Positions 9,601 through 42,338 of a stretch of DNA of 64,000 bases are shown one piece after another. The notes under the pieces are model-generated. The model had not been told where the DNA came from. It made no database searches and saw nothing but the letters and a program-made list of their open reading frames with translations. The stretch is from positions 6,414 through 70,413 of the forward strand of contig CANGYO010000001.1 in NCBI GenBank assembly GCA_947458095.1, in the 5' to 3' direction. Positions within the stretch are counted from its first letter, which is position 1, and each line of letters begins with the position of its first letter. This DNA comes from Vampirovibrionales bacterium (GTDB taxonomy: Bacteria; Cyanobacteriota; Vampirovibrionia; Vampirovibrionales; JAJTHC01). The position numbers were made by a program, and so were the translations under genes.

Positions 9601-9730
9601 GTCCCCCCTCCTAATTTTAGGAGGGGGTTAGGGGGCGGTTAAACCCTAGACTCCGTTTGTGGTTTAACCTCACCCTCGAACGTCCTTCAGACGTTCTCTT
9701 CCCTCTCCTAAAATTAGGAGAGGGGACAAG
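9601..9730. repeat. Composite palindromic element P1 (three nested hairpins), reverse complement of the 16679 element
   Basis: It contains cccccctcctaattttaggaggggg, ggttaaaccctagactccgtttgtggtttaacc, gaacgtccttcagacgttc and cccctctcctaaaattaggagagggg. Related copies are at 15140 and 16679. Confidence 0.8.
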
Positions 9731-11805: not shown

Positions 11806-12630
11806 ATGTCTTTAAACACCCTGAAAATCGGCATTGTCGGCTTGGGCAATATGTCGGGGGCGATTCTGAAAGGCTTGTTGAAGGCAGGGGTTTTGCCTGA
11901 AAACGTTGTAGGCATTGCGTCTTCACCCGAACGAGCGACCTTGCGTCAAGCCGAATACGACGTAAGCTGTACCACACTTGAGCTTGGCAAAGAGGCCCTT
12001 TCACAGGTGGATCTGCTCCTTTTAGGCGTGAAACCCTTTGTGATGCCCGCTGTTTTAGCCGATTTAGAAGGCATCACGCTGAAGGCGGAGGCTGTGGTGG
12101 TGTCTGTCGCAGCGGGTACGACCTTGGCGACGATAGGTGAGTCCTTGCCGAATACGGCGATTGTGCGAGCCATGCCGAATACGCCAGCCCTTGTGGGACA
12201 AGGGTTTACGGCAATGGCTCCGAATGCGTATGTGGGGGATGCTCAAAAAACGCTGGTGGCATCGGTGTTTGAAGCGGTGGGTAAGGCGGTGTGGCTCGAA
12301 GAGGGGCAGATCAACGCCTTTACAGGGCTTTTTGGTAGCGGCCCTGCGTATGTGTTCTACATCATGGAAGCCTTGGTAGAAGCGGGTTTAGCCGAAGGAT
12401 TGCCCCCTGAATTGGTGGAAGCAGGCGTGCTTCAGCTGGTGAAAGGATCCGCCTTATTGCTGGAAACCCGTGCGACGACCGCATCTCAGCTAAAGGCGGA
12501 GGTCGTCACCCCTAACGGCACCACAGCGAAAGGCTTAGAGGCGTTGGCATCAGCGAAGGTGGATGTCGCCTTACAAGAGGCCGTCCATCAAGCGACACGT
12601 CGAGCAGAAGAGTTGTCGAAAAACGTGTAA
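11806..12630 (+). CDS. proC: Pyrroline-5-carboxylate reductase
   Basis: The 274 aa ORF has GIVGLGNMSGAIL, AMPNTPALVGQG, GSGPAYVFYIMEAL and VTPNGTTAKGL motifs. Confidence 0.85.
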   Translation: MSLNTLKIGIVGLGNMSGAILKGLLKAGVLPENVVGIASSPERATLRQAEYDVSCTTLELGKEALSQVDLLLLGVKPFVMPAVLADLEGITLKAEAVVVSVAAGTTLATIGESLPNTAIVRAMPNTPALVGQGFTAMAPNAYVGDAQKTLVASVFEAVGKAVWLEEGQINAFTGLFGSGPAYVFYIMEALVEAGLAEGLPPELVEAGVLQLVKGSALLLETRATTASQLKAEVVTPNGTTAKGLEALASAKVDVALQEAVHQATRRAEELSKNV

Positions 12631-12644
12631 AAAGGCGTTAATTT

Positions 12645-12756
12645 CCGACACACGAAAGTCGATTCTTGACACACGAAACCCTGTTTTCTGACACACGAAA
12701 CCCGCCTTTCTGACACACGAAACCCGCCTTTCTGACACACGAAACGACGCCTTTTT
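12645..12756. repeat. Tandem array of five 22-bp direct repeats (tgacacacgaaacccgcctttc)
   Basis: The units are ccgacacacgaaagtcgattct, tgacacacgaaaccctgttttc, tgacacacgaaacccgcctttc (x2, identical) and tgacacacgaaacgacgccttttt. The array is flanked by inverted aaaggcg/cgccttt and lies between convergent proC and the RHH-like gene. Confidence 0.85.
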
Positions 12757-12759
12757 CAT

Positions 12760-13191
12760 CTAGTGAGGGCCCTCCTCGCTTCGAAGCTCCCACAACTCCT
12801 TATGGGCTTCTTTCTTAAAGTAGTGCATAAACGCATGTTCAATCATATCACTAAACGATAGATGCAAGACCTTGGCTTCTCGTTCAAGGATTTTCTTGAA
12901 TTGAGGCGACACCCAAAGACCCATCCGCACCCGATCGCTTTTCGGACGCCCCACAATTTTCGGAGGCCTTTCATAGGTCTCTGAACGCTCCATCGCTTGG
13001 TCGGCTTCTTCCATCACCGCAAACCACGCTTCCAATTTGTCCATAAAATGCTCTTCTGATTCAGTGCGGGATCCGCCTGTGGTGGTGAAAAAGTTAAAAA
13101 GTGCATGCGACGTGACGAAGCAACCTCGTCGCATGTCGTAACGGGTGCGTAAGCCGATGCGAGGGTCGTCGTCTCCACGATAGAGTTTCAT
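12760..13191 (-). CDS. Hypothetical protein with a C-terminal ribbon-helix-helix-like DNA-binding motif
   Basis: The 143 aa ORF has a strong RBS (AAAGGAGA-N7-ATG). The C-terminal VRMGLWVSPQFKKILEREAKVLHLSFSDMIEHAF fits a beta-strand/helix/helix RHH pattern. The N-terminal 70 aa are unassigned. Confidence 0.4.
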   Translation of the reverse strand: MKLYRGDDDPRIGLRTRYDMRRGCFVTSHALFNFFTTTGGSRTESEEHFMDKLEAWFAVMEEADQAMERSETYERPPKIVGRPKSDRVRMGLWVSPQFKKILEREAKVLHLSFSDMIEHAFMHYFKKEAHKELWELRSEEGPH

Positions 13192-13235
13192 TTCGGGGTC
13201 TCCTTTGGTTTTTTTTGGGGGGGATGCCTTATGTT

Positions 13236-13260
13236 CCCCCTCCTAATTTTAGGAGAGGGG
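13236..13260. repeat. Single palindromic hairpin P2 (ccccctcctaattttaggagagggg)
   Basis: A perfect 9-bp stem, identical to the arms of the composite P elements. T8 and G7 homopolymer runs lie immediately adjacent. Confidence 0.7.
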
Positions 13261-13357
13261 ACACAGGCTACTATCCTAAGCATGACAACTATTTACGCCA
13301 TTGCATAGTGCGTAAAACCCACTATTTTCCACACGGCAATGTAACAATTTAAAACGC

Positions 13358-13419
13358 CGATCAAACATAGCAAAGATCAAGGGCTTGATCTTCACCTGAT
13401 CTGATCGTACGATCCGATC
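13358..13419. promoter_or_regulatory. Cluster of seven GATC sites, including the 12-bp palindrome GATCGTACGATC, about 65 nt upstream of the methyltransferase gene
   Basis: The sequence is cgccGATCaaacatagcaaaGATCaagggcttGATCttcacctGATCtGATCgtacGATCcGATCgcc, giving 7 GATC sites in 62 bp. Confidence 0.6.
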
Positions 13420-13483
13420 GCCTTATCAGAGGCGTTTTTTCGACACAGAAAGAATGTCCCTATAAAGCACGGAGTCCCCCACA

Positions 13484-14392
13484 ATGAAAAGCCCCGAAAC
13501 CCTCATGTTATTACACCAAGACGACACACTAAGCTTGCACTTAGGCGATGTGCTAGAAACCCTAGCCAGCTTGCCCCAAGAAAGTGTCGATCTTATTTTT
13601 GCCGACCCCCCCTACAACTTGAGCAACGACGGCTTTACCTGCCACGCAGGCAAACGAGTCAGCGTCAACAAAGGGGTGTGGGACAAAAGCAACGGCGTGC
13701 AAGCCGATTTCGATTTTCACCGTGCGTGGATTTCCGCCTGTTACCGAGTGCTAAAACCCAACGGTAGCCTATGGATTAGTGGCACCTACCATTCCATTTA
13801 CGCTTGCGGATTCGCCCTACAACTCGACGGCTGGCATGTGATTAACGATGTCGCATGGTTCAAGCCCAACGCCGCCCCGAACTTGAGTTGCCGTATGTTT
13901 ACCGCCAGCCATGAAACGCTGATTTGGGCGAGAAAAAGCAAAACCGCCAAGCACACGTTTAACTATGACTTGATGAAAAACGGCATGTGGCATGAAGACG
14001 ATTTCATTAAAAAGCCTGAAAAACAAATGCGAAGCGTGTGGGCAAGTGGCACGCCCAAACCCCACGAAAAAGCCTTTGGTAAGCACCCCACCCAAAAGCC
14101 CGAACTGCTGTTAAGACGCATTGTAATTGCCAGTAGCTTACAAGGTGACGTGGTGCTAGACCCCTTTTGTGGGAGCGGTACAACAGGCGTAGTCGCCTTA
14201 CAACACGGACGCAACTTCATTGGCATTGACCAAAACCGTGAGTATTTGGAAGGGATTGCCATTCGCCGTTTAAAACACATTCAAGAACAAGTGCAAGCGT
14301 GTATAATAAAGGAACAGTTAGAGTCCTTGTATGCACTGGATGCCTATATAGATGAGTCTTCAATTCAACTTAGCTTATGCGGAATCTTATAA
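13484..14392 (+). CDS. Beta-class N6-adenine/N4-cytosine DNA methyltransferase of the CcrM/M.HinfI/DpnA family
   Basis: Motif IV DPPY (VDLIFADPPYNL) precedes motif I (LDPFCGSGTTG). Conserved blocks AHETLIWARKSKTAKHTFNYD and HPTQKPELLLRRI match the CcrM/HinfI methylase family. Confidence 0.85.
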   Translation: MKSPETLMLLHQDDTLSLHLGDVLETLASLPQESVDLIFADPPYNLSNDGFTCHAGKRVSVNKGVWDKSNGVQADFDFHRAWISACYRVLKPNGSLWISGTYHSIYACGFALQLDGWHVINDVAWFKPNAAPNLSCRMFTASHETLIWARKSKTAKHTFNYDLMKNGMWHEDDFIKKPEKQMRSVWASGTPKPHEKAFGKHPTQKPELLLRRIVIASSLQGDVVLDPFCGSGTTGVVALQHGRNFIGIDQNREYLEGIAIRRLKHIQEQVQACIIKEQLESLYALDAYIDESSIQLSLCGIL

Positions 14393-15134
14393 TAGTGAAA
14401 CGCAACGTGTTAGACGTATGTCTGAAAAATGGCTGGTGGAAGAATCATATTGCCCTGCGTGTGGGGGACGTTTGGCGGAATATCCCAATAATAAACCTGT
14501 GCGAGATACGTATTGTGAAGATTGTGGTGAAAAATACGAGCTAAAATCTAAAAAAAGTAGTGAAAAAGGACTTTTAAAGCTTCCTGAAAAAATTGTGGAT
14601 GGGGCGTATGCCACGATGATGCAAGATATGGAAGCCCAAACGACTCCCAATTTATTATTTTTACAATACTTAAGTGGCTATACGGTGGCGTCTTTACTGG
14701 TGATTCCTAAGCAGTTTTTCGTGCCTGCTTTAATTGAAAAGCGTAACCCTTTATCCAAGACGGCACGACGTGCAGGCTGGGTGGGTTGTAATATCCTACT
14801 AGAACCCATTCCACAAGTGGGACGGATTCCCATTATTCAAAACAAAGTATTTGAACCGAAGGATAAGGTTATTTCTATTTTTCAGAAAACCTTATTTTTA
14901 CGACATCAACAAAAACTTGAAGCTAAAGGCTGGTTGCTGGATGTGATGCGGTGTGTGGAACTCATCGGCAAAGAAGAGTTTACGTTGCAAGATATTTATC
15001 AACATGAAGCGATGCTGAAAGACTTACATCCCGACAATAATAATGTGCAAGCGAAGATACGGCAACAATTGCAAGTCTTGCGAGACGCAGGCTTCTTGGC
15101 GTTTGTGGGTCGTGGGGTGTATCGGGTGGTGTAA
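14352..15134 (+). CDS. DpnI-like methyl-directed (G6mATC-type) restriction endonuclease; overlaps the methyltransferase by 41 nt
   Basis: The 260 aa ORF resembles DpnI along its length as recalled from memory: MSLQFNL...SYCPACGG...YCEDCGEKYELKSKK...DGAYATMMQ...ARRAGWVGCNI...EFTLQDIY...KIRQQLQVLRDAGFLAFVGRGVYRVV. DpnI has an N-terminal PD-(D/E)XK nuclease and a C-terminal winged helix. Confidence 0.8.
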   Translation: MSLQFNLAYAESYNSETQRVRRMSEKWLVEESYCPACGGRLAEYPNNKPVRDTYCEDCGEKYELKSKKSSEKGLLKLPEKIVDGAYATMMQDMEAQTTPNLLFLQYLSGYTVASLLVIPKQFFVPALIEKRNPLSKTARRAGWVGCNILLEPIPQVGRIPIIQNKVFEPKDKVISIFQKTLFLRHQQKLEAKGWLLDVMRCVELIGKEEFTLQDIYQHEAMLKDLHPDNNNVQAKIRQQLQVLRDAGFLAFVGRGVYRVV

Positions 15135-15139
15135 ATGCC

Positions 15140-15267
15140 GTCCCCTCTCCTAATTTTAGGAGAGGGAAGAGAACGTCTGAAAGACGTTCGAGGGGGAGCT
15201 TAGACTCACCACGGGCATCTAGGGTTTAACCGCCCCCTAACACCCTCCTAAAATCAGGAGGGGGGAC
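15140..15267. repeat. Composite palindromic element P3
   Basis: It contains gtcccctctcctaattttaggagaggg, gaacgtctgaaagacgttc, ...tagggtttaacc... and ccctcctaaaatcaggagggg. It has the same architecture as the elements at 9601 and 16679. Confidence 0.75.
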
Positions 15268-15286
15268 AAAGCCAATTGGGTTTCGT

Positions 15287-15360
15287 CATTGCGAGCGTAG
15301 CGTGGCAATCTGTCAAGACGTCGCAGGTGGGGGAACAGATTGCTTCGTTGCACTCGCAAT
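15287..15360. repeat. Long nested inverted repeat (cattgcgag...gcaatctgt-N22-acagattgc...ctcgcaat)
   Basis: Two nested perfect inverted repeats of 9 bp each enclose a G-rich loop. It is a possible structured RNA or protein-binding site. Confidence 0.5.
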
Positions 15361-15422
15361 AACGGTGTTTTTTATCACTTTGCGTAGAGTCTCCTCAAGG
15401 AGAGGGAACAGAGCCGAAGCAC

Positions 15423-15451
15423 TTGACAAAGCGTGCAACATTTGACACAAT
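15423..15451 (+). promoter_or_regulatory. Convergent promoter TTGACA-N17-CACAAT (copy C, plus strand because the module is inverted)
   Basis: The plus strand reads TTGACAaagcgtgcaacatttgaCACAAT. Confidence 0.5.
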
Positions 15452-15507
15452 ATAAAAAGGGAGAGTCCCCAAGTCGGTAAACTTGAGAACTCTTTTTCGC
15501 TATCCTC

Positions 15508-15570
15508 CTAGAGTTTTGTCACTAGAAGGAGGATAATTAACAGCGACATAAGTTTCTGAAGTTCATCCAT
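15508..15570 (-). CDS. Candidate 20-aa hydrophobic peptide MDELQKLMSLLIILLLVTKL
   Basis: It has the same RBS spacing, length and C-terminal LLIILLLVTKL as copies A and E. Confidence 0.5.
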   Translation of the reverse strand: MDELQKLMSLLIILLLVTKL

Positions 15571-15711
15571 TTTAGCTCACCTCCTTTCTGTTACAGAACG
15601 GGGGTGTTGCTTATTAGCAACCCTTTAAAGGTTTTTATTAGACTAGCACAAAGCCTTAGCAGGTTCAAGCCAGATACGGCAACAATGGCAAGTCTTGCTT
15701 GAATCCGCCTG

Positions 15712-16668
15712 ATGCTTTTTTGTGAAAGGATGCCCTCTTTGATTCCACGCACCGACATCCAAAAACAGCTCAACGACGTGGGCATTACGCAGTGGGGCGT
15801 TCTCACCACCGATGCCCTCAAAAACGAAGCCCAACGCCTGACGGCGTGGCTGGAGGCTGGGCATCACGCCGACATGGACTGGATGCCTCGTCACGCCGAA
15901 AAACGGGTGTCTCCGTCTGATTTGTGGGAAGGCGTGCAAAGTGTCGTGGTGGTGGCCGTCAACTACTTCCCTGGTTGGGAAGCAGGGCAAGGCGACGATC
16001 TGAAAATCGCTCGCTACGCCCTAGGCAAGGACTATCACAAGGTGATTCGTCGTAAGCTTGGCAAGGTTTTAAAGGCGTTACAGGCGGAACATGAGGGCTT
16101 AGAGGGTCGTCCCTTTGTGGATTCGGCGCCTTTGCTTGAAAAGGCGTTAGCCGTTCAAGCAGGCTTGGGCTGGCAAGGCAAGCATAGTCTTTTAATCACG
16201 AAAGAAGCAGGGTCATGGGTGATGCTTGGGGCGTTGTTCCTCAATCAAGCCGTTGATGCCTATACCAGTCCCCACGAAAACACGCTGGAATCGGGGCATT
16301 GTGGGACCTGTACGCGGTGCATCACGGCTTGCCCCACGGAGGCGATCGTCTCGCCCACGGTCGTCGACAGCCGTCGGTGCATCGCCTATTGGACGATTGA
16401 AAATGGAGATGATGCTTTGCCTGATTTTATCCAAGACAACCAGCAGGATTGGGGCTTTGGATGCGACATTTGCCAAGATGTCTGCCCATGGAACCTGAAG
16501 TTTTCTAACGTGACTGAGGAGCCTGCCTTTGCCCCTCGGGCGGTGTTGGCACATCCGAATCGGGCGTATTTTCAGAGTTTGAGTGAAGCCGCTTTTGCTC
16601 AAGCCTTTGAAAATAGTCCCTTGCGTCGCACGGGCTTGAGGCGGATCCAGCGGAATATCATGCTTTAG
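15712..16668 (+). CDS. queG: Epoxyqueuosine reductase
   Basis: The 318 aa ORF has a QueG-type layout with a C-terminal 4Fe-4S ferredoxin motif (CGTCTRCITACPT) and a second Cys cluster (CDICQDVCPWN). The start may be the downstream ATG at 15730. Confidence 0.75.
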   Translation: MLFCERMPSLIPRTDIQKQLNDVGITQWGVLTTDALKNEAQRLTAWLEAGHHADMDWMPRHAEKRVSPSDLWEGVQSVVVVAVNYFPGWEAGQGDDLKIARYALGKDYHKVIRRKLGKVLKALQAEHEGLEGRPFVDSAPLLEKALAVQAGLGWQGKHSLLITKEAGSWVMLGALFLNQAVDAYTSPHENTLESGHCGTCTRCITACPTEAIVSPTVVDSRRCIAYWTIENGDDALPDFIQDNQQDWGFGCDICQDVCPWNLKFSNVTEEPAFAPRAVLAHPNRAYFQSLSEAAFAQAFENSPLRRTGLRRIQRNIML

Positions 16669-16678
16669 AGAATCGCCT

Positions 16679-16808
16679 TGTCCCCTCTCCTAATTTTAGG
16701 AGAGGGAAGAGAACGTCGTTAGACGTTCGAGGGTGAGGTTAAACCTTAGACTCCGTTTGTGGGTTTAACCGCCCCCTAGCCCCCTCCTAAAATTAGGAGG
16801 GGGGACAA
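16679..16808. repeat. Composite palindromic element P5
   Basis: It contains gtcccctctcctaattttaggagaggg, gaacgtcgttagacgttc, ggttaaaccttagactccgtttgtgggtttaacc and ccctcctaaaattaggagggggg. It is the reverse complement of P1. Confidence 0.8.
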
Positions 16809-41005: not shown

Positions 41006-41620
41006 ATGTATCGTGTTGATCGCAATAATTTCTACGAGAATACTAAAGTAGCTACAATTTATACACCTGAAAAAATGAGTGCGTTGTTATTTGAAATTTT
41101 AAGTCCTCAAATTAGAAACGGGCTTATTTTTGATCCCTGTGTGGGACAAGGGTCTTTACTGAAGCCATGGATGAACGGAGGGTACTCTGTTTTAGGTGTT
41201 GATATTGAAGAGCAAGGCTTTGAAAATACTATTGTAAAAAACTATCTCACTGTTGAAAAAGGTGAGTTAGCAACCCCTTCTTTGGTGATTATGAACCCTC
41301 CATTTAATATTGATGATAAAACAAAGGATTATATTAAAGCCACCTATGGGAGTCGCCCTTTATTACCCGAAATATGGCTGTTGAAAGCGATTGAACTTTT
41401 TGGCAAGAATATCCCTATGGCAATGTTTACACCTTACGGCTTTAGGCTTAATCAAACGGTTAACAGTAAGCGTTGGCAAAGATTCCAGCAAGGGGACTAT
41501 CCTGAAATATCGAGTATTATTAGTTTGCCTAAAGATTTGTTTGAAGGCATTCTGTTTCATAGTGAAGTCTTGATATTTAACGTTAAGGGTCTAAAAGGAC
41601 ATTACTTTTATGATGGCTAA
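41006..41620 (+). CDS. Small gamma-class N6-adenine DNA methyltransferase (R-M island, low GC)
   Basis: Motif I is IFDPCVGQGSLL and motif IV is VIMNPPFN. The local GC (~35%) is much lower than that of the flanking suf genes. Confidence 0.7.
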   Translation: MYRVDRNNFYENTKVATIYTPEKMSALLFEILSPQIRNGLIFDPCVGQGSLLKPWMNGGYSVLGVDIEEQGFENTIVKNYLTVEKGELATPSLVIMNPPFNIDDKTKDYIKATYGSRPLLPEIWLLKAIELFGKNIPMAMFTPYGFRLNQTVNSKRWQRFQQGDYPEISSIISLPKDLFEGILFHSEVLIFNVKGLKGHYFYDG

Positions 41621-42338
41621 GTCAGAAGATTTAAGAAAAAATATAAATCAGCATAAGCCTAAAAATGAAAAATCGAAATTAGATGACAAGCTCATTTATC
41701 AAGCGATGTATGACACAATTGATTATCTAAATCAACGTTTTGAAAAAGCTGATAATTTTAAAGGATATACGCTGAAATTTCAAGACAATTTAAGCTATGA
41801 AGAAATGATTTCCGTTATTAAACGCTCTAATTTAAGAACGGAGTATGAAGCTTTTTTCAGAAACTGTACGATTAAGCCTGACGGTGGTGTTATTGTGCTT
41901 ACACGAAGTAATGATCCCGATTTTTTTAAAATTGTTTTGGTTTCTGAAGTAAAACGTCAAGGCACTAATGATGTTCGTCAAGAAGAAGGTAAGAAAAAAC
42001 AATCTCAGGGCAATGCCATTGAACGTTTAGGTAAAAACCTTACAGGCATTAAAGCAATGTTGAATCACGAAAAAATAACCCCCTTTGTTTGTTTTGGTTG
42101 GGGATGCGATTTTAATCAAAAGTATACAGATGATGATTTTGTCATGGCGAAAATTAGCATGTTAAATGAGTTTTACCCACTCAATAAAATCTATGTCCAT
42201 AAAAAAGATGGCAGTAGTGACCAAAATTATTTTTCGCCTACTTCCATGTTTTTTAGAGAAGAAGCTTGGACTAAAGAAGAGATGTTTGAGATTTTGAAAG
42301 AAGTCGGTGAAACCTCTATTCGATATTACTTATTTTGA
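41610..42338 (+). CDS. EcoRI-family type II restriction endonuclease (recognition site may be GAATTC or a relative such as CAATTG)
   Basis: It has an EcoRI-like catalytic region (IKPDGGVIVLTRSNDPDFFKIVLVSEVKRQG) and GNAIERLGKN. It also has a C-terminal ...EEMFEILKEV block resembling the EcoRI ...KIMFEIMFD block recalled from memory. It overlaps the methyltransferase gene by 11 nt. Confidence 0.7.
   Translation: MMAKSEDLRKNINQHKPKNEKSKLDDKLIYQAMYDTIDYLNQRFEKADNFKGYTLKFQDNLSYEEMISVIKRSNLRTEYEAFFRNCTIKPDGGVIVLTRSNDPDFFKIVLVSEVKRQGTNDVRQEEGKKKQSQGNAIERLGKNLTGIKAMLNHEKITPFVCFGWGCDFNQKYTDDDFVMAKISMLNEFYPLNKIYVHKKDGSSDQNYFSPTSMFFREEAWTKEEMFEILKEVGETSIRYYLF

Follow-up and report, generated by a model that had tools for sequence, protein, structure and literature searches.

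Why would seven copies of a 4-bp methylation target be packed directly in front of the genes for a DNA methyltransferase and a methylation-dependent nuclease? The question is raised by a cluster of GATC sites in the genome of a Vampirovibrionales bacterium (GenBank assembly GCA_947458095.1, contig CANGYO010000001.1), which was analyzed within a 64,000-nucleotide stretch of that contig (positions 6,414 to 70,413 of the forward strand), referred to here as the window. As an original prediction made from the letters of the sequence had claimed, seven GATC sites lie upstream of a methyltransferase/DpnI-like operon. They begin at positions 13359, 13375, 13387, 13398, 13403, 13411, and 13416, occupy 61 bp (13359 to 13419), and end 65 nt before the methyltransferase gene. 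The 12-bp perfect palindrome described in the same prediction is also present (GATCGTACGATC, 13403 to 13414), within a 22-bp near-palindrome, GATCtGATCGTACGATCcGATC (13398 to 13419). Spacings of 11 to 12 nt occur between neighboring sites.

GATC density was computed along the whole window, the check that had been proposed with the prediction, and the cluster is an outlier. The window contains 190 GATC sites compared with 193.8 expected from dinucleotide shuffles, and therefore GATC is neither enriched nor avoided across it. Because this average corresponds to one site per 337 bp, the local density in the cluster is ca. 39-fold higher than in the window; the enrichment that had been claimed is real, but the figure of 29-fold was too low. 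The next-densest 62-bp stretch elsewhere in the window has three sites. When the window was simulated 200 times with a first-order Markov model, the largest GATC clusters had two to five sites and never seven, and the Poisson expectation of a seven-site cluster anywhere in the window is ca. 5e-5. The only other tetramers that occur at least seven times per 62 bp in the window are homopolymers or simple repeats. The simulations, the Poisson estimate, and the comparison with other tetramers rule out chance or low complexity as the origin of the cluster. Denser clusters, with ten sites in 65 bp, were seen on two phage contigs (L071, 2094 to 2158; L083, 3610 to 3674); these are TGATCA-type repeats unrelated to the methylase genes described here.

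Eight further cassettes were recovered by looking up the exact protein, searching for homologues, and scanning species-representative genomes. They come from metagenome-assembled genomes of Vampirovibrionales or from metagenome contigs without an assignment, and their methylases are 89 to 95% identical to that of the window over the aligned stretch. All nine cassettes have seven or eight GATC sites at an equal distance from the methylase start codon. The nine upstream regions were aligned and invariant columns were counted. All 28 GATC columns of the cluster are invariant, versus 23 of the 33 other cluster columns (Fisher p = 0.001), 2 of 15 columns directly upstream, and 28 of 64 in the leader between the cluster and the ATG. 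In contrast, variation affects 52% (138 of 267) of the third codon positions of the methylase gene. The synonymous divergence (dS) of the methylase genes in the window and in the cassette L004 is 0.79, yet a 26-nt core, CTGATCTGATCGTACGATCCGATCGC (13396 to 13421), which holds sites 4 to 7 and the 22-bp near-palindrome, is identical in these and in all the other cassettes. Sites 2 and 3 lie in another palindrome, AAGATCAAG-GG-CTTGATCTT (13373 to 13392), in which the arms are invariant. The 10 variable positions fall in its center (GGG/GG/GCC) and in linkers (TAGC/CTGA/TGGC and TCAC/GGGG/TCGG). The comparison marks the GATC cluster as a cis-regulatory element under strong selection, carried by a mobile cassette with a probable GATC methylase.

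The original prediction had not recognized the methylase as a GATC enzyme. The gene (13484 to 14392, plus strand) encodes a beta-class N6-adenine DNA methyltransferase of the DpnA/LlaDCHIB type (PF01555, E = 2e-59; DPPY ... FCGSGTTG), with motif IV (DPPY, at residue 41) N-terminal to motif I (FxGxG) and no extra N-terminal DNA-binding region. Homologues that are ca. 70 to 75% identical number in the thousands across many phyla. One that is 75% identical precedes a DpnII-family nuclease gene (PF04556), and one that is 72% identical precedes a MutH/Sau3AI-family nuclease gene. The best plasmid match, with 49% identity, is the second methylase of pSRQ700, located between genes for a Dam-type methylase and a type II nuclease in an operon that we take to be the GATC-specific LlaDCHI system, related to DpnII. 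There is also 52% identity to a sequence that is presumably S. pneumoniae DpnA. The coding DNA of the cassettes contains zero or one GATC, versus ca. six expected from base composition and three to four from a Markov model, and the longest GATC-free interval of the window (13589 to 15997) covers the cassette. The enzyme very probably makes Gm6ATC, as judged from its relatives and from the site content of its own genes, and if it is a GATC-type enzyme, the sites of the cluster are its own targets.

CcrM provides the best matches among solved structures in the PDB and among NCBIfam families. The target of CcrM is GANTC. Such a specificity was rejected, since far closer homologues are paired with DpnII- and MutH-family nucleases and GANTC is not depleted in the coding DNA of the cassette. 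In addition, the only GANTC in the ribosome-binding site (GAGTC) is lost in two cassettes (GAGCC in L016 and L017). The cluster names of methylase homologues held no specificity information. An inactive methylase, as reported for others next to DpnI-like genes, was also ruled out: the frame is intact, the protein keeps 128 of the 130 columns with a conservation of 95% or more among 117 homologues, and the ratio of nonsynonymous to synonymous divergence (dN/dS) is 0.04 to 0.15 (0.065 for the window versus L004). Six Vampirovibrionales methylases were compared, and the only change that they all share is Q115 to D or E.

The second gene of the operon is a genuine DpnI homologue, as had been predicted. 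It lies at 14352 to 15134 (plus strand), overlaps the methylase gene by 41 nt, and encodes a DpnI-family nuclease with a C-terminal winged helix (PF06044, E = 2e-65; PF17726, E = 9e-30; E = 8e-72 versus S. pneumoniae DpnI, 4esj). Alignment to 4esj shows that the catalytic triad (D53, E64, and K66) and the four zinc-binding cysteines are conserved. Residues L129, R135, W138, and G140 of the methyl-binding cleft, N48, Q18, and R126, which contact bases, and K229 and R231 of the winged helix, read against the published structure (PMC4117772), are conserved as well. The conservation of all of the catalytic and methyl-pocket residues argues against an inactive or re-specified enzyme. The dN/dS of the nuclease is 0.08 to 0.10 (0.09 for the window versus L004, with a dS of 1.07), and the two overlapping genes have been under purifying selection while linked.

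Judged from the proteins that they encode, an intact GATC methylase gene and an intact DpnI orthologue in one operon are a real paradox. The remark in the original prediction that the context inverts the usual logic was justified, because a GATC N6-adenine methylase and a nuclease that depends on Gm6ATC share an operon. Methylases adjoining genes for DpnI-like nucleases or PD-(D/E)XK nucleases with a winged helix have been reported only in frameshifted form, and residual conflicts between methylase and nuclease were proposed to need tight control of expression (PMC11037411). The window shows no avoidance of GATC. Activity of the methylase on host DNA is argued by sister methylases, 90 to 93% identical, that are paired with a 179-amino-acid enzyme resembling a classical type II nuclease; blocking of the nuclease by cognate methylation is a feature of those sister cassettes only and not of the window. 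The invariant cluster in front of the two genes is an obvious candidate for the control point that permits them to coexist.

Comparison of the cassettes demonstrates that the cluster is linked to the methylase gene and not to the DpnI-like gene, another nuclease, or the upstream open reading frame. The partner is DpnI-like in the window, L002, and L004; a convergently encoded 206-amino-acid HNH protein with a DpnI_C domain in L013 and L018; a 179-amino-acid PD-(D/E)XK protein without a winged helix in L014, L015, and L016; and a 437-amino-acid DUF6996/DUF6997/DUF7226 protein in L017. Thus, the constant module is the cluster, the leader, and the methylase gene, with the nuclease partner exchanged among four unrelated types, and the cluster is the only constant noncoding feature of the cassette. 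Nucleotide homology to the window runs from between 13298 and 13358 to ca. 14272 and resumes at 15048, the two positions at which nucleases have been swapped. The conserved right-hand end (15048 to 15275) comprises the 3'-terminal 87 nt of the DpnI-like gene and its downstream flank and is 93% identical in L014 and L017 and 90% identical in L015. The DpnI-type partner is considered ancestral because the 3' end of its gene survives downstream of replaced nuclease genes, over ca. 87 nt in L014 and L017 and ca. 50 nt in L015. A further small remnant of a DpnI 3' end lies at 15663 to 15698 of the window. The cassette is mobile and is found in at least three chromosomal contexts: after proC in the window, after ftsZ in L002, L013, L014, and L019, after ffh in L016 and L017, and after a small open reading frame in L004 (the contig of L015 is too short to show the upstream gene). 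The bin that contains L014 (JBEISK010000001.1) is labeled Gammaproteobacteria but is probably mis-binned or mislabeled, because its synteny of ftsZ, repeats, and cassette is that of the Vampirovibrionales bins.

These comparisons also bear on the proteins proposed in the original prediction to bind the cluster. A neighboring ribbon-helix-helix (RHH) protein was one of them. The divergent open reading frame in question (12760 to 13191, 143 amino acids) has no significant family match, with RHH_1 reaching only a subthreshold E of 0.06 to 0.17, and it is confined to the window and a duplicate contig (L001), being absent from all eight other cassettes that bear the cluster. It was rejected as the regulator because the gene is not inherited with the cluster. 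The other candidate was the winged helix of the DpnI-like protein, but the cluster is kept base for base in the cassettes in which the partner is the 179-amino-acid protein or the DUF6996/DUF6997/DUF7226 protein. Neither candidate is supported as the primary explanation, although a role for a winged helix that reads methylated GATC is a live secondary possibility. The gene with which the cluster is coinherited is the methylase gene. None of the cassettes encodes a controller (C) protein.

The suggestion that the cluster is a nonrandom element in the promoter or 5' region of the operon is supported. Sigma-70-like promoters with at least 8 of 12 hexamer matches, and with A at -11 and T at -7 required, were sought in the 230 nt before each methylase gene of the nine cassettes. 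The pair TTGATC-N17-TACGAT is the only one found at one shared position in all nine regions, and most loci have no other candidate that passes the scan. The putative -35 hexamer (TTGATC, 13385 to 13390, plus strand) contains site 3, and the putative -10 hexamer (TACGAT, 13408 to 13413, plus strand) is overlapped by site 6. The spacer (13391 to 13407) is always 17 nt long, holds sites 4 and 5, and is partly variable in sequence at the TCAC/GGGG/TCGG linker. With transcription predicted to start near 13420, site 1 would lie at about -63, site 2 at about -47, site 6 across -9 to -6, and site 7 at about -4 to -1, so that five of the seven sites fall between -35 and +1. The cluster as a whole is 65 to 125 nt before the ATG, and the assignment of its sites to the methylase follows the specificity of homologues. 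Read-through cannot be the source of operon expression in the window because the upstream gene is divergent. Moreover, whatever drives expression in all nine cassettes must lie at or after the cluster, because the homology of L004 and L015 to the window starts at the first GATC.

The reading that we favor, and consider somewhat better than an even chance, is that the cluster is a promoter that senses its own methylation state. A methylation-state sensor was among the suggestions of the original prediction and is the best supported of the readings considered. The cluster would be the promoter plus operator of a small mobile Vampirovibrionales methyltransferase-nuclease cassette, with seven of the methylase's own target sites spread over the TTGATC-N17-TACGAT promoter: the -35 hexamer contains one and the spacer two, one overlaps the -10 hexamer, one comes immediately ahead of the start, and two lie upstream, with site 2 and the -35 site as the two arms of one palindrome. 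The methylation state of the cluster would report the presence and activity of the methylase and would set the use of the promoter, either by RNA polymerase directly or by a protein that reads methylated GATC. The feedback would act on transcription of the methylase gene and of the nuclease gene behind it. Both the position of the promoter and the effect of methylation on transcription are what we infer from the arrangement of the sites.

Several observations weigh against this interpretation. The match to a sigma-70 promoter, at 8 of 12 positions, is modest. Further upstream, an extended -10-like element, TGTAACAAT (13340 to 13348, plus strand), is conserved in seven of nine cassettes (absent from L004 and L015), and if it were the promoter it could place the whole cluster in the 5' untranslated region. 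The bases between the GATC sites of the core are likewise invariant, which methylation targets alone would not need; therefore an additional sequence-specific reader, or the promoter hexamers themselves, is indicated. Simple negative feedback also fails to account for the survival of a cell that coexpresses a GATC methylase and a DpnI orthologue. Furthermore, at 35 loci with more distant homologues of the methylase, partnered by DpnII-like, MutH-like, or 179-amino-acid nucleases, the 200 nt upstream contain zero to two GATC sites, and pSRQ700 has no GATC cluster upstream of its methylase homologue. The device is therefore lineage-specific and not a general need of the methylase family.

Other readings were weighed against the self-sensing promoter. 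The cluster might be an array on which the nuclease partner, whether DpnI-like or HNH plus DpnI_C, docks by its winged helix, which reads methylated GATC: the methylase would modify the cluster, and the nuclease would bind there and repress its own operon, or be sequestered, so that a methylated cell would contain little of it. The DpnI_C domain (PF17726) is present in two of the four types of partner, the DpnI-type partner is ancestral, the winged helix of DpnI binds Gm6ATC on its own, the residues K229 and R231 are conserved here, and spacings of 11 to 12 nt would put neighboring sites on the same face of the helix. However, L014, L015, and L016, which have a partner without the winged helix, keep the cluster unaltered, as does L017, and a catalytically intact DpnI on fully methylated GATC would be expected to cut rather than merely sit. 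We regard this reading as unlikely, though deserving of attention. It is a little harder still to accept that the palindromes are operators for a dimeric sequence-specific regulator, either a host factor or the methylase itself as a repressor, so that methylation would be irrelevant and GATC incidental. M.SsoII and M.EcoRII do repress their own promoters, and the invariance of the non-GATC core bases and palindrome arms, with variation confined to the center and the spacers between palindromes, is the pattern of a dimer operator. However, the cassette encodes no regulator, the 143-amino-acid open reading frame being unique to the window, and the only constant protein is the methylase, which has no extra N-terminal DNA-binding region. 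Seven copies of the exact 4-bp target of the enzyme would also be a remarkable coincidence. A similarly low probability is assigned to an "inverted" restriction module, in which the methylase would mark DNA that the DpnI-like nuclease cuts, or the pair would serve for self-destruction, with the GATC-packed promoter as the trigger, an epigenetic fuse rather than a homeostat. The operon would normally be silent in an unmethylated genome and would fire only when GATC methylation appears, for example from a phage-encoded Dam or from stochastic expression of the methylase. The methylase would then spread methylation over all DNA and the DpnI-like enzyme would shred it, resulting in abortive infection or strong addiction.

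We are more doubtful that the cluster works as RNA, with hairpins in a long 5' untranslated region that starts from TGTAACAAT and controls the stability, termination, or translation of the mRNA. The region folds better than shuffled sequence (z = -2.3 for the plus strand and -4.3 for the minus strand), variable positions fall in predicted loops and linkers, and in the window the cluster is followed by a hairpin and six T residues. However, it is the antisense strand that folds best, as expected for DNA palindromes, which alone would yield such scores. The RNAalifold covariation term over the nine cassettes is 0.09, and the stems within the cluster never vary, so there are no compensatory changes and the stems are uninformative either way. 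No Rfam family matched positions 12500 to 15800 at E <= 1, and neither the terminator-like hairpin nor its T-run is conserved. This hairpin (CGCC-ttatcaga-GGCG plus T6, 13419 to 13440, plus strand), found in a terminator scan, is present in the window and L002, has a weakened stem and broken T-run in L013, L014, and L019, and is replaced in L004, L015, L016, and L017. A leader terminator or attenuator was ruled out because no GC-rich hairpin with a U-run is conserved among the cassettes, and the hairpin in the window is probably not functional as a terminator. Least probable is that the cluster is a recombination or insertion site at the left end of the mobile cassette. The occurrence of the cassette in at least three chromosomal contexts, the homology of L004 and L015 that starts exactly at the first GATC, and the palindromes, which are typical of such sites, are consistent with this. 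In contrast, the homology of the other seven cassettes continues 55 to 95 nt further left, with a 22-nt repeat array beyond, the nuclease swaps at 14272 and 15048 are away from the cluster, and the cassette has no recombinase.

The leader downstream of the cluster contains a second hairpin, CGTTTTTT-cgacacag-AAAGAATG (13433 to 13456, plus strand), that resembles a single unit of a 22-nt repeat found upstream. Pairing in its stem is preserved by G-U pairs in the window and by Watson-Crick pairs in L013, with an overall covariation term of about zero. The ribosome-binding site of the methyltransferase gene is GGAG (13471 to 13474, plus strand), and GCACGGAG is invariant in all of the cassettes.

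The repeat itself (TTTCTGACACACGAAACCCGCC) occurs in five tandem copies at 12642 to 12754, its only occurrence in the window apart from a degenerate copy in the leader (13436 to 13453). Related arrays lie upstream of the cassette in all three contexts (L002, 1640 to 1800; L013, 1340 to 1475; L016, 3570 to 3720). The array may be a protein-binding array or a part of the mobile unit. A palindrome resembling repetitive extragenic palindromes, CCTCCTAAnnTTAGGAG, is intergenic, often paired, and present on both sides of the cassette (9607 to 9721, 13239 to 13256, 15146 to 15261, and 16686 to 16800), with 14 strand-matches versus 0.14 expected. A tract of eight T and then seven G residues (13209 to 13224), 18 nt before the start codon of the divergent 143-amino-acid open reading frame, could be prone to slippage. 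The neighbors of the cassette in the window are housekeeping genes, purH and proC on the left and queG on the right. The noncoding stretch before queG (15414 to 15653) has no Rfam match and is ca. 80% identical to stretches upstream of ffh in L016 (1583 to 1818) and L017 (1549 to 1775). The window also contains a second restriction-modification pair inserted between sufD and sufS, a small N6_Mtase gene (41006 to 41620) and an EcoRI-family nuclease gene (41610 to 42338). GAATTC is eight-fold depleted in the window (3 sites versus 24 expected), in contrast to GATC.

The 179-amino-acid partners belong to a PD-(D/E)XK family of ca. 175 amino acids (including L056 to L061) with more than 4000 homologues and a weak match to PF20472. 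The family directly adjoins a beta-class N6 methylase gene in all three of the unrelated lineages examined, which is why the enzyme resembles a classical type II nuclease; it looks like an undescribed type II family, probably GATC-specific.

Searches for the element elsewhere found little. When metagenome contigs were scanned for an exact pattern of the core (GATCNGATCGTACGATCNGATC), only two unrelated palindromes (L005 and L006) were returned. Viral contigs gave no match to the strict core pattern and 28 matches to a looser pattern, which by a rough estimate is about the number expected by chance, and none of these was near a close homologue. A search of viral contigs with the DpnI-like protein recovered no relatives, and a contig scan with the methylase as query recovered no example outside Vampirovibrionales of PF06044/PF17726 beside an intact PF01555 gene.

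An apparently active GATC methylase together with an apparently active methyl-GATC nuclease is a combination treated in the field as a lethal genomic conflict, and such pairings have so far been found only with broken methylase genes. If the cluster makes the pairing viable, it provides a testable handle on how cells manage such conflicts. There could also be a defense logic in which methylation marks DNA for destruction. More broadly, the cassette shows the exchange of nuclease genes around a fixed module of methylase and promoter in the poorly studied Vampirovibrionales.

In DpnII and LlaDCHI systems, the homologue of the methylase is the second, DpnA/LlaDCHIB-type enzyme, but the cassette lacks the alpha-class, Dam-like first methylase and the DpnII-type nuclease of those systems, and pSRQ700 lacks the cluster. 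The protein encoded at 14352 to 15134 shares the fold signature, triad, zinc cysteines, methyl pocket, and winged helix of the DpnI/Drg type IIM (type IV-like) enzymes. Described members of that family are stand-alone, whereas here an intact methylase gene under purifying selection overlaps the nuclease gene.

In pap, agn43, opvAB, IS10 pIN, dnaA/oriC sequestration, and phage P1 pac, methylation of closely placed GATC sites governs the access of proteins to DNA. As is predicted here, a GATC overlaps the -10 hexamer of pIN, and P1 pac also has seven sites, in its case seven GATC hexamers. Unlike these switches, which combine the housekeeping Dam with a competing binder such as Lrp, OxyR, or SeqA, the cluster has the methylase gene directly behind it and no known binder. 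Its density, one site per 9 bp, also exceeds that of the Dam-dependent switches. The promoter and leader of Caulobacter ccrM carry GANTC sites of the encoded enzyme and respond to their methylation state. The resemblance is that of a beta-class adenine methylase with its own target sites before its gene, in what is here a predicted promoter. However, ccrM has GANTC rather than GATC, has two sites, depends on CtrA and the cell cycle, and is an orphan with no nuclease partner.

Control of restriction-modification genes by methylation of their own promoters has been described as logical yet rarely used, with one or two sites in each case. The closest parallels are CfrBI, AhdI, and LlaDII, in which the promoter of the methylase gene contains the enzyme's own recognition site and methylated DNA feeds back on transcription (PMC12707154). 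Those systems have one or two sites and a nuclease that methylation blocks, whereas the cassette has seven sites in 61 bp, of which five fall between -35 and +1 of the predicted promoter, and, in the window, a methylation-dependent nuclease as a partner. Most likely, the cluster represents a new form, and an extreme one, of the control known from CfrBI, AhdI, LlaDII, and ccrM. If so, it would be by far the densest case of own-promoter methylation, with seven cognate sites over a single promoter and comparative evidence of strong selection on them.

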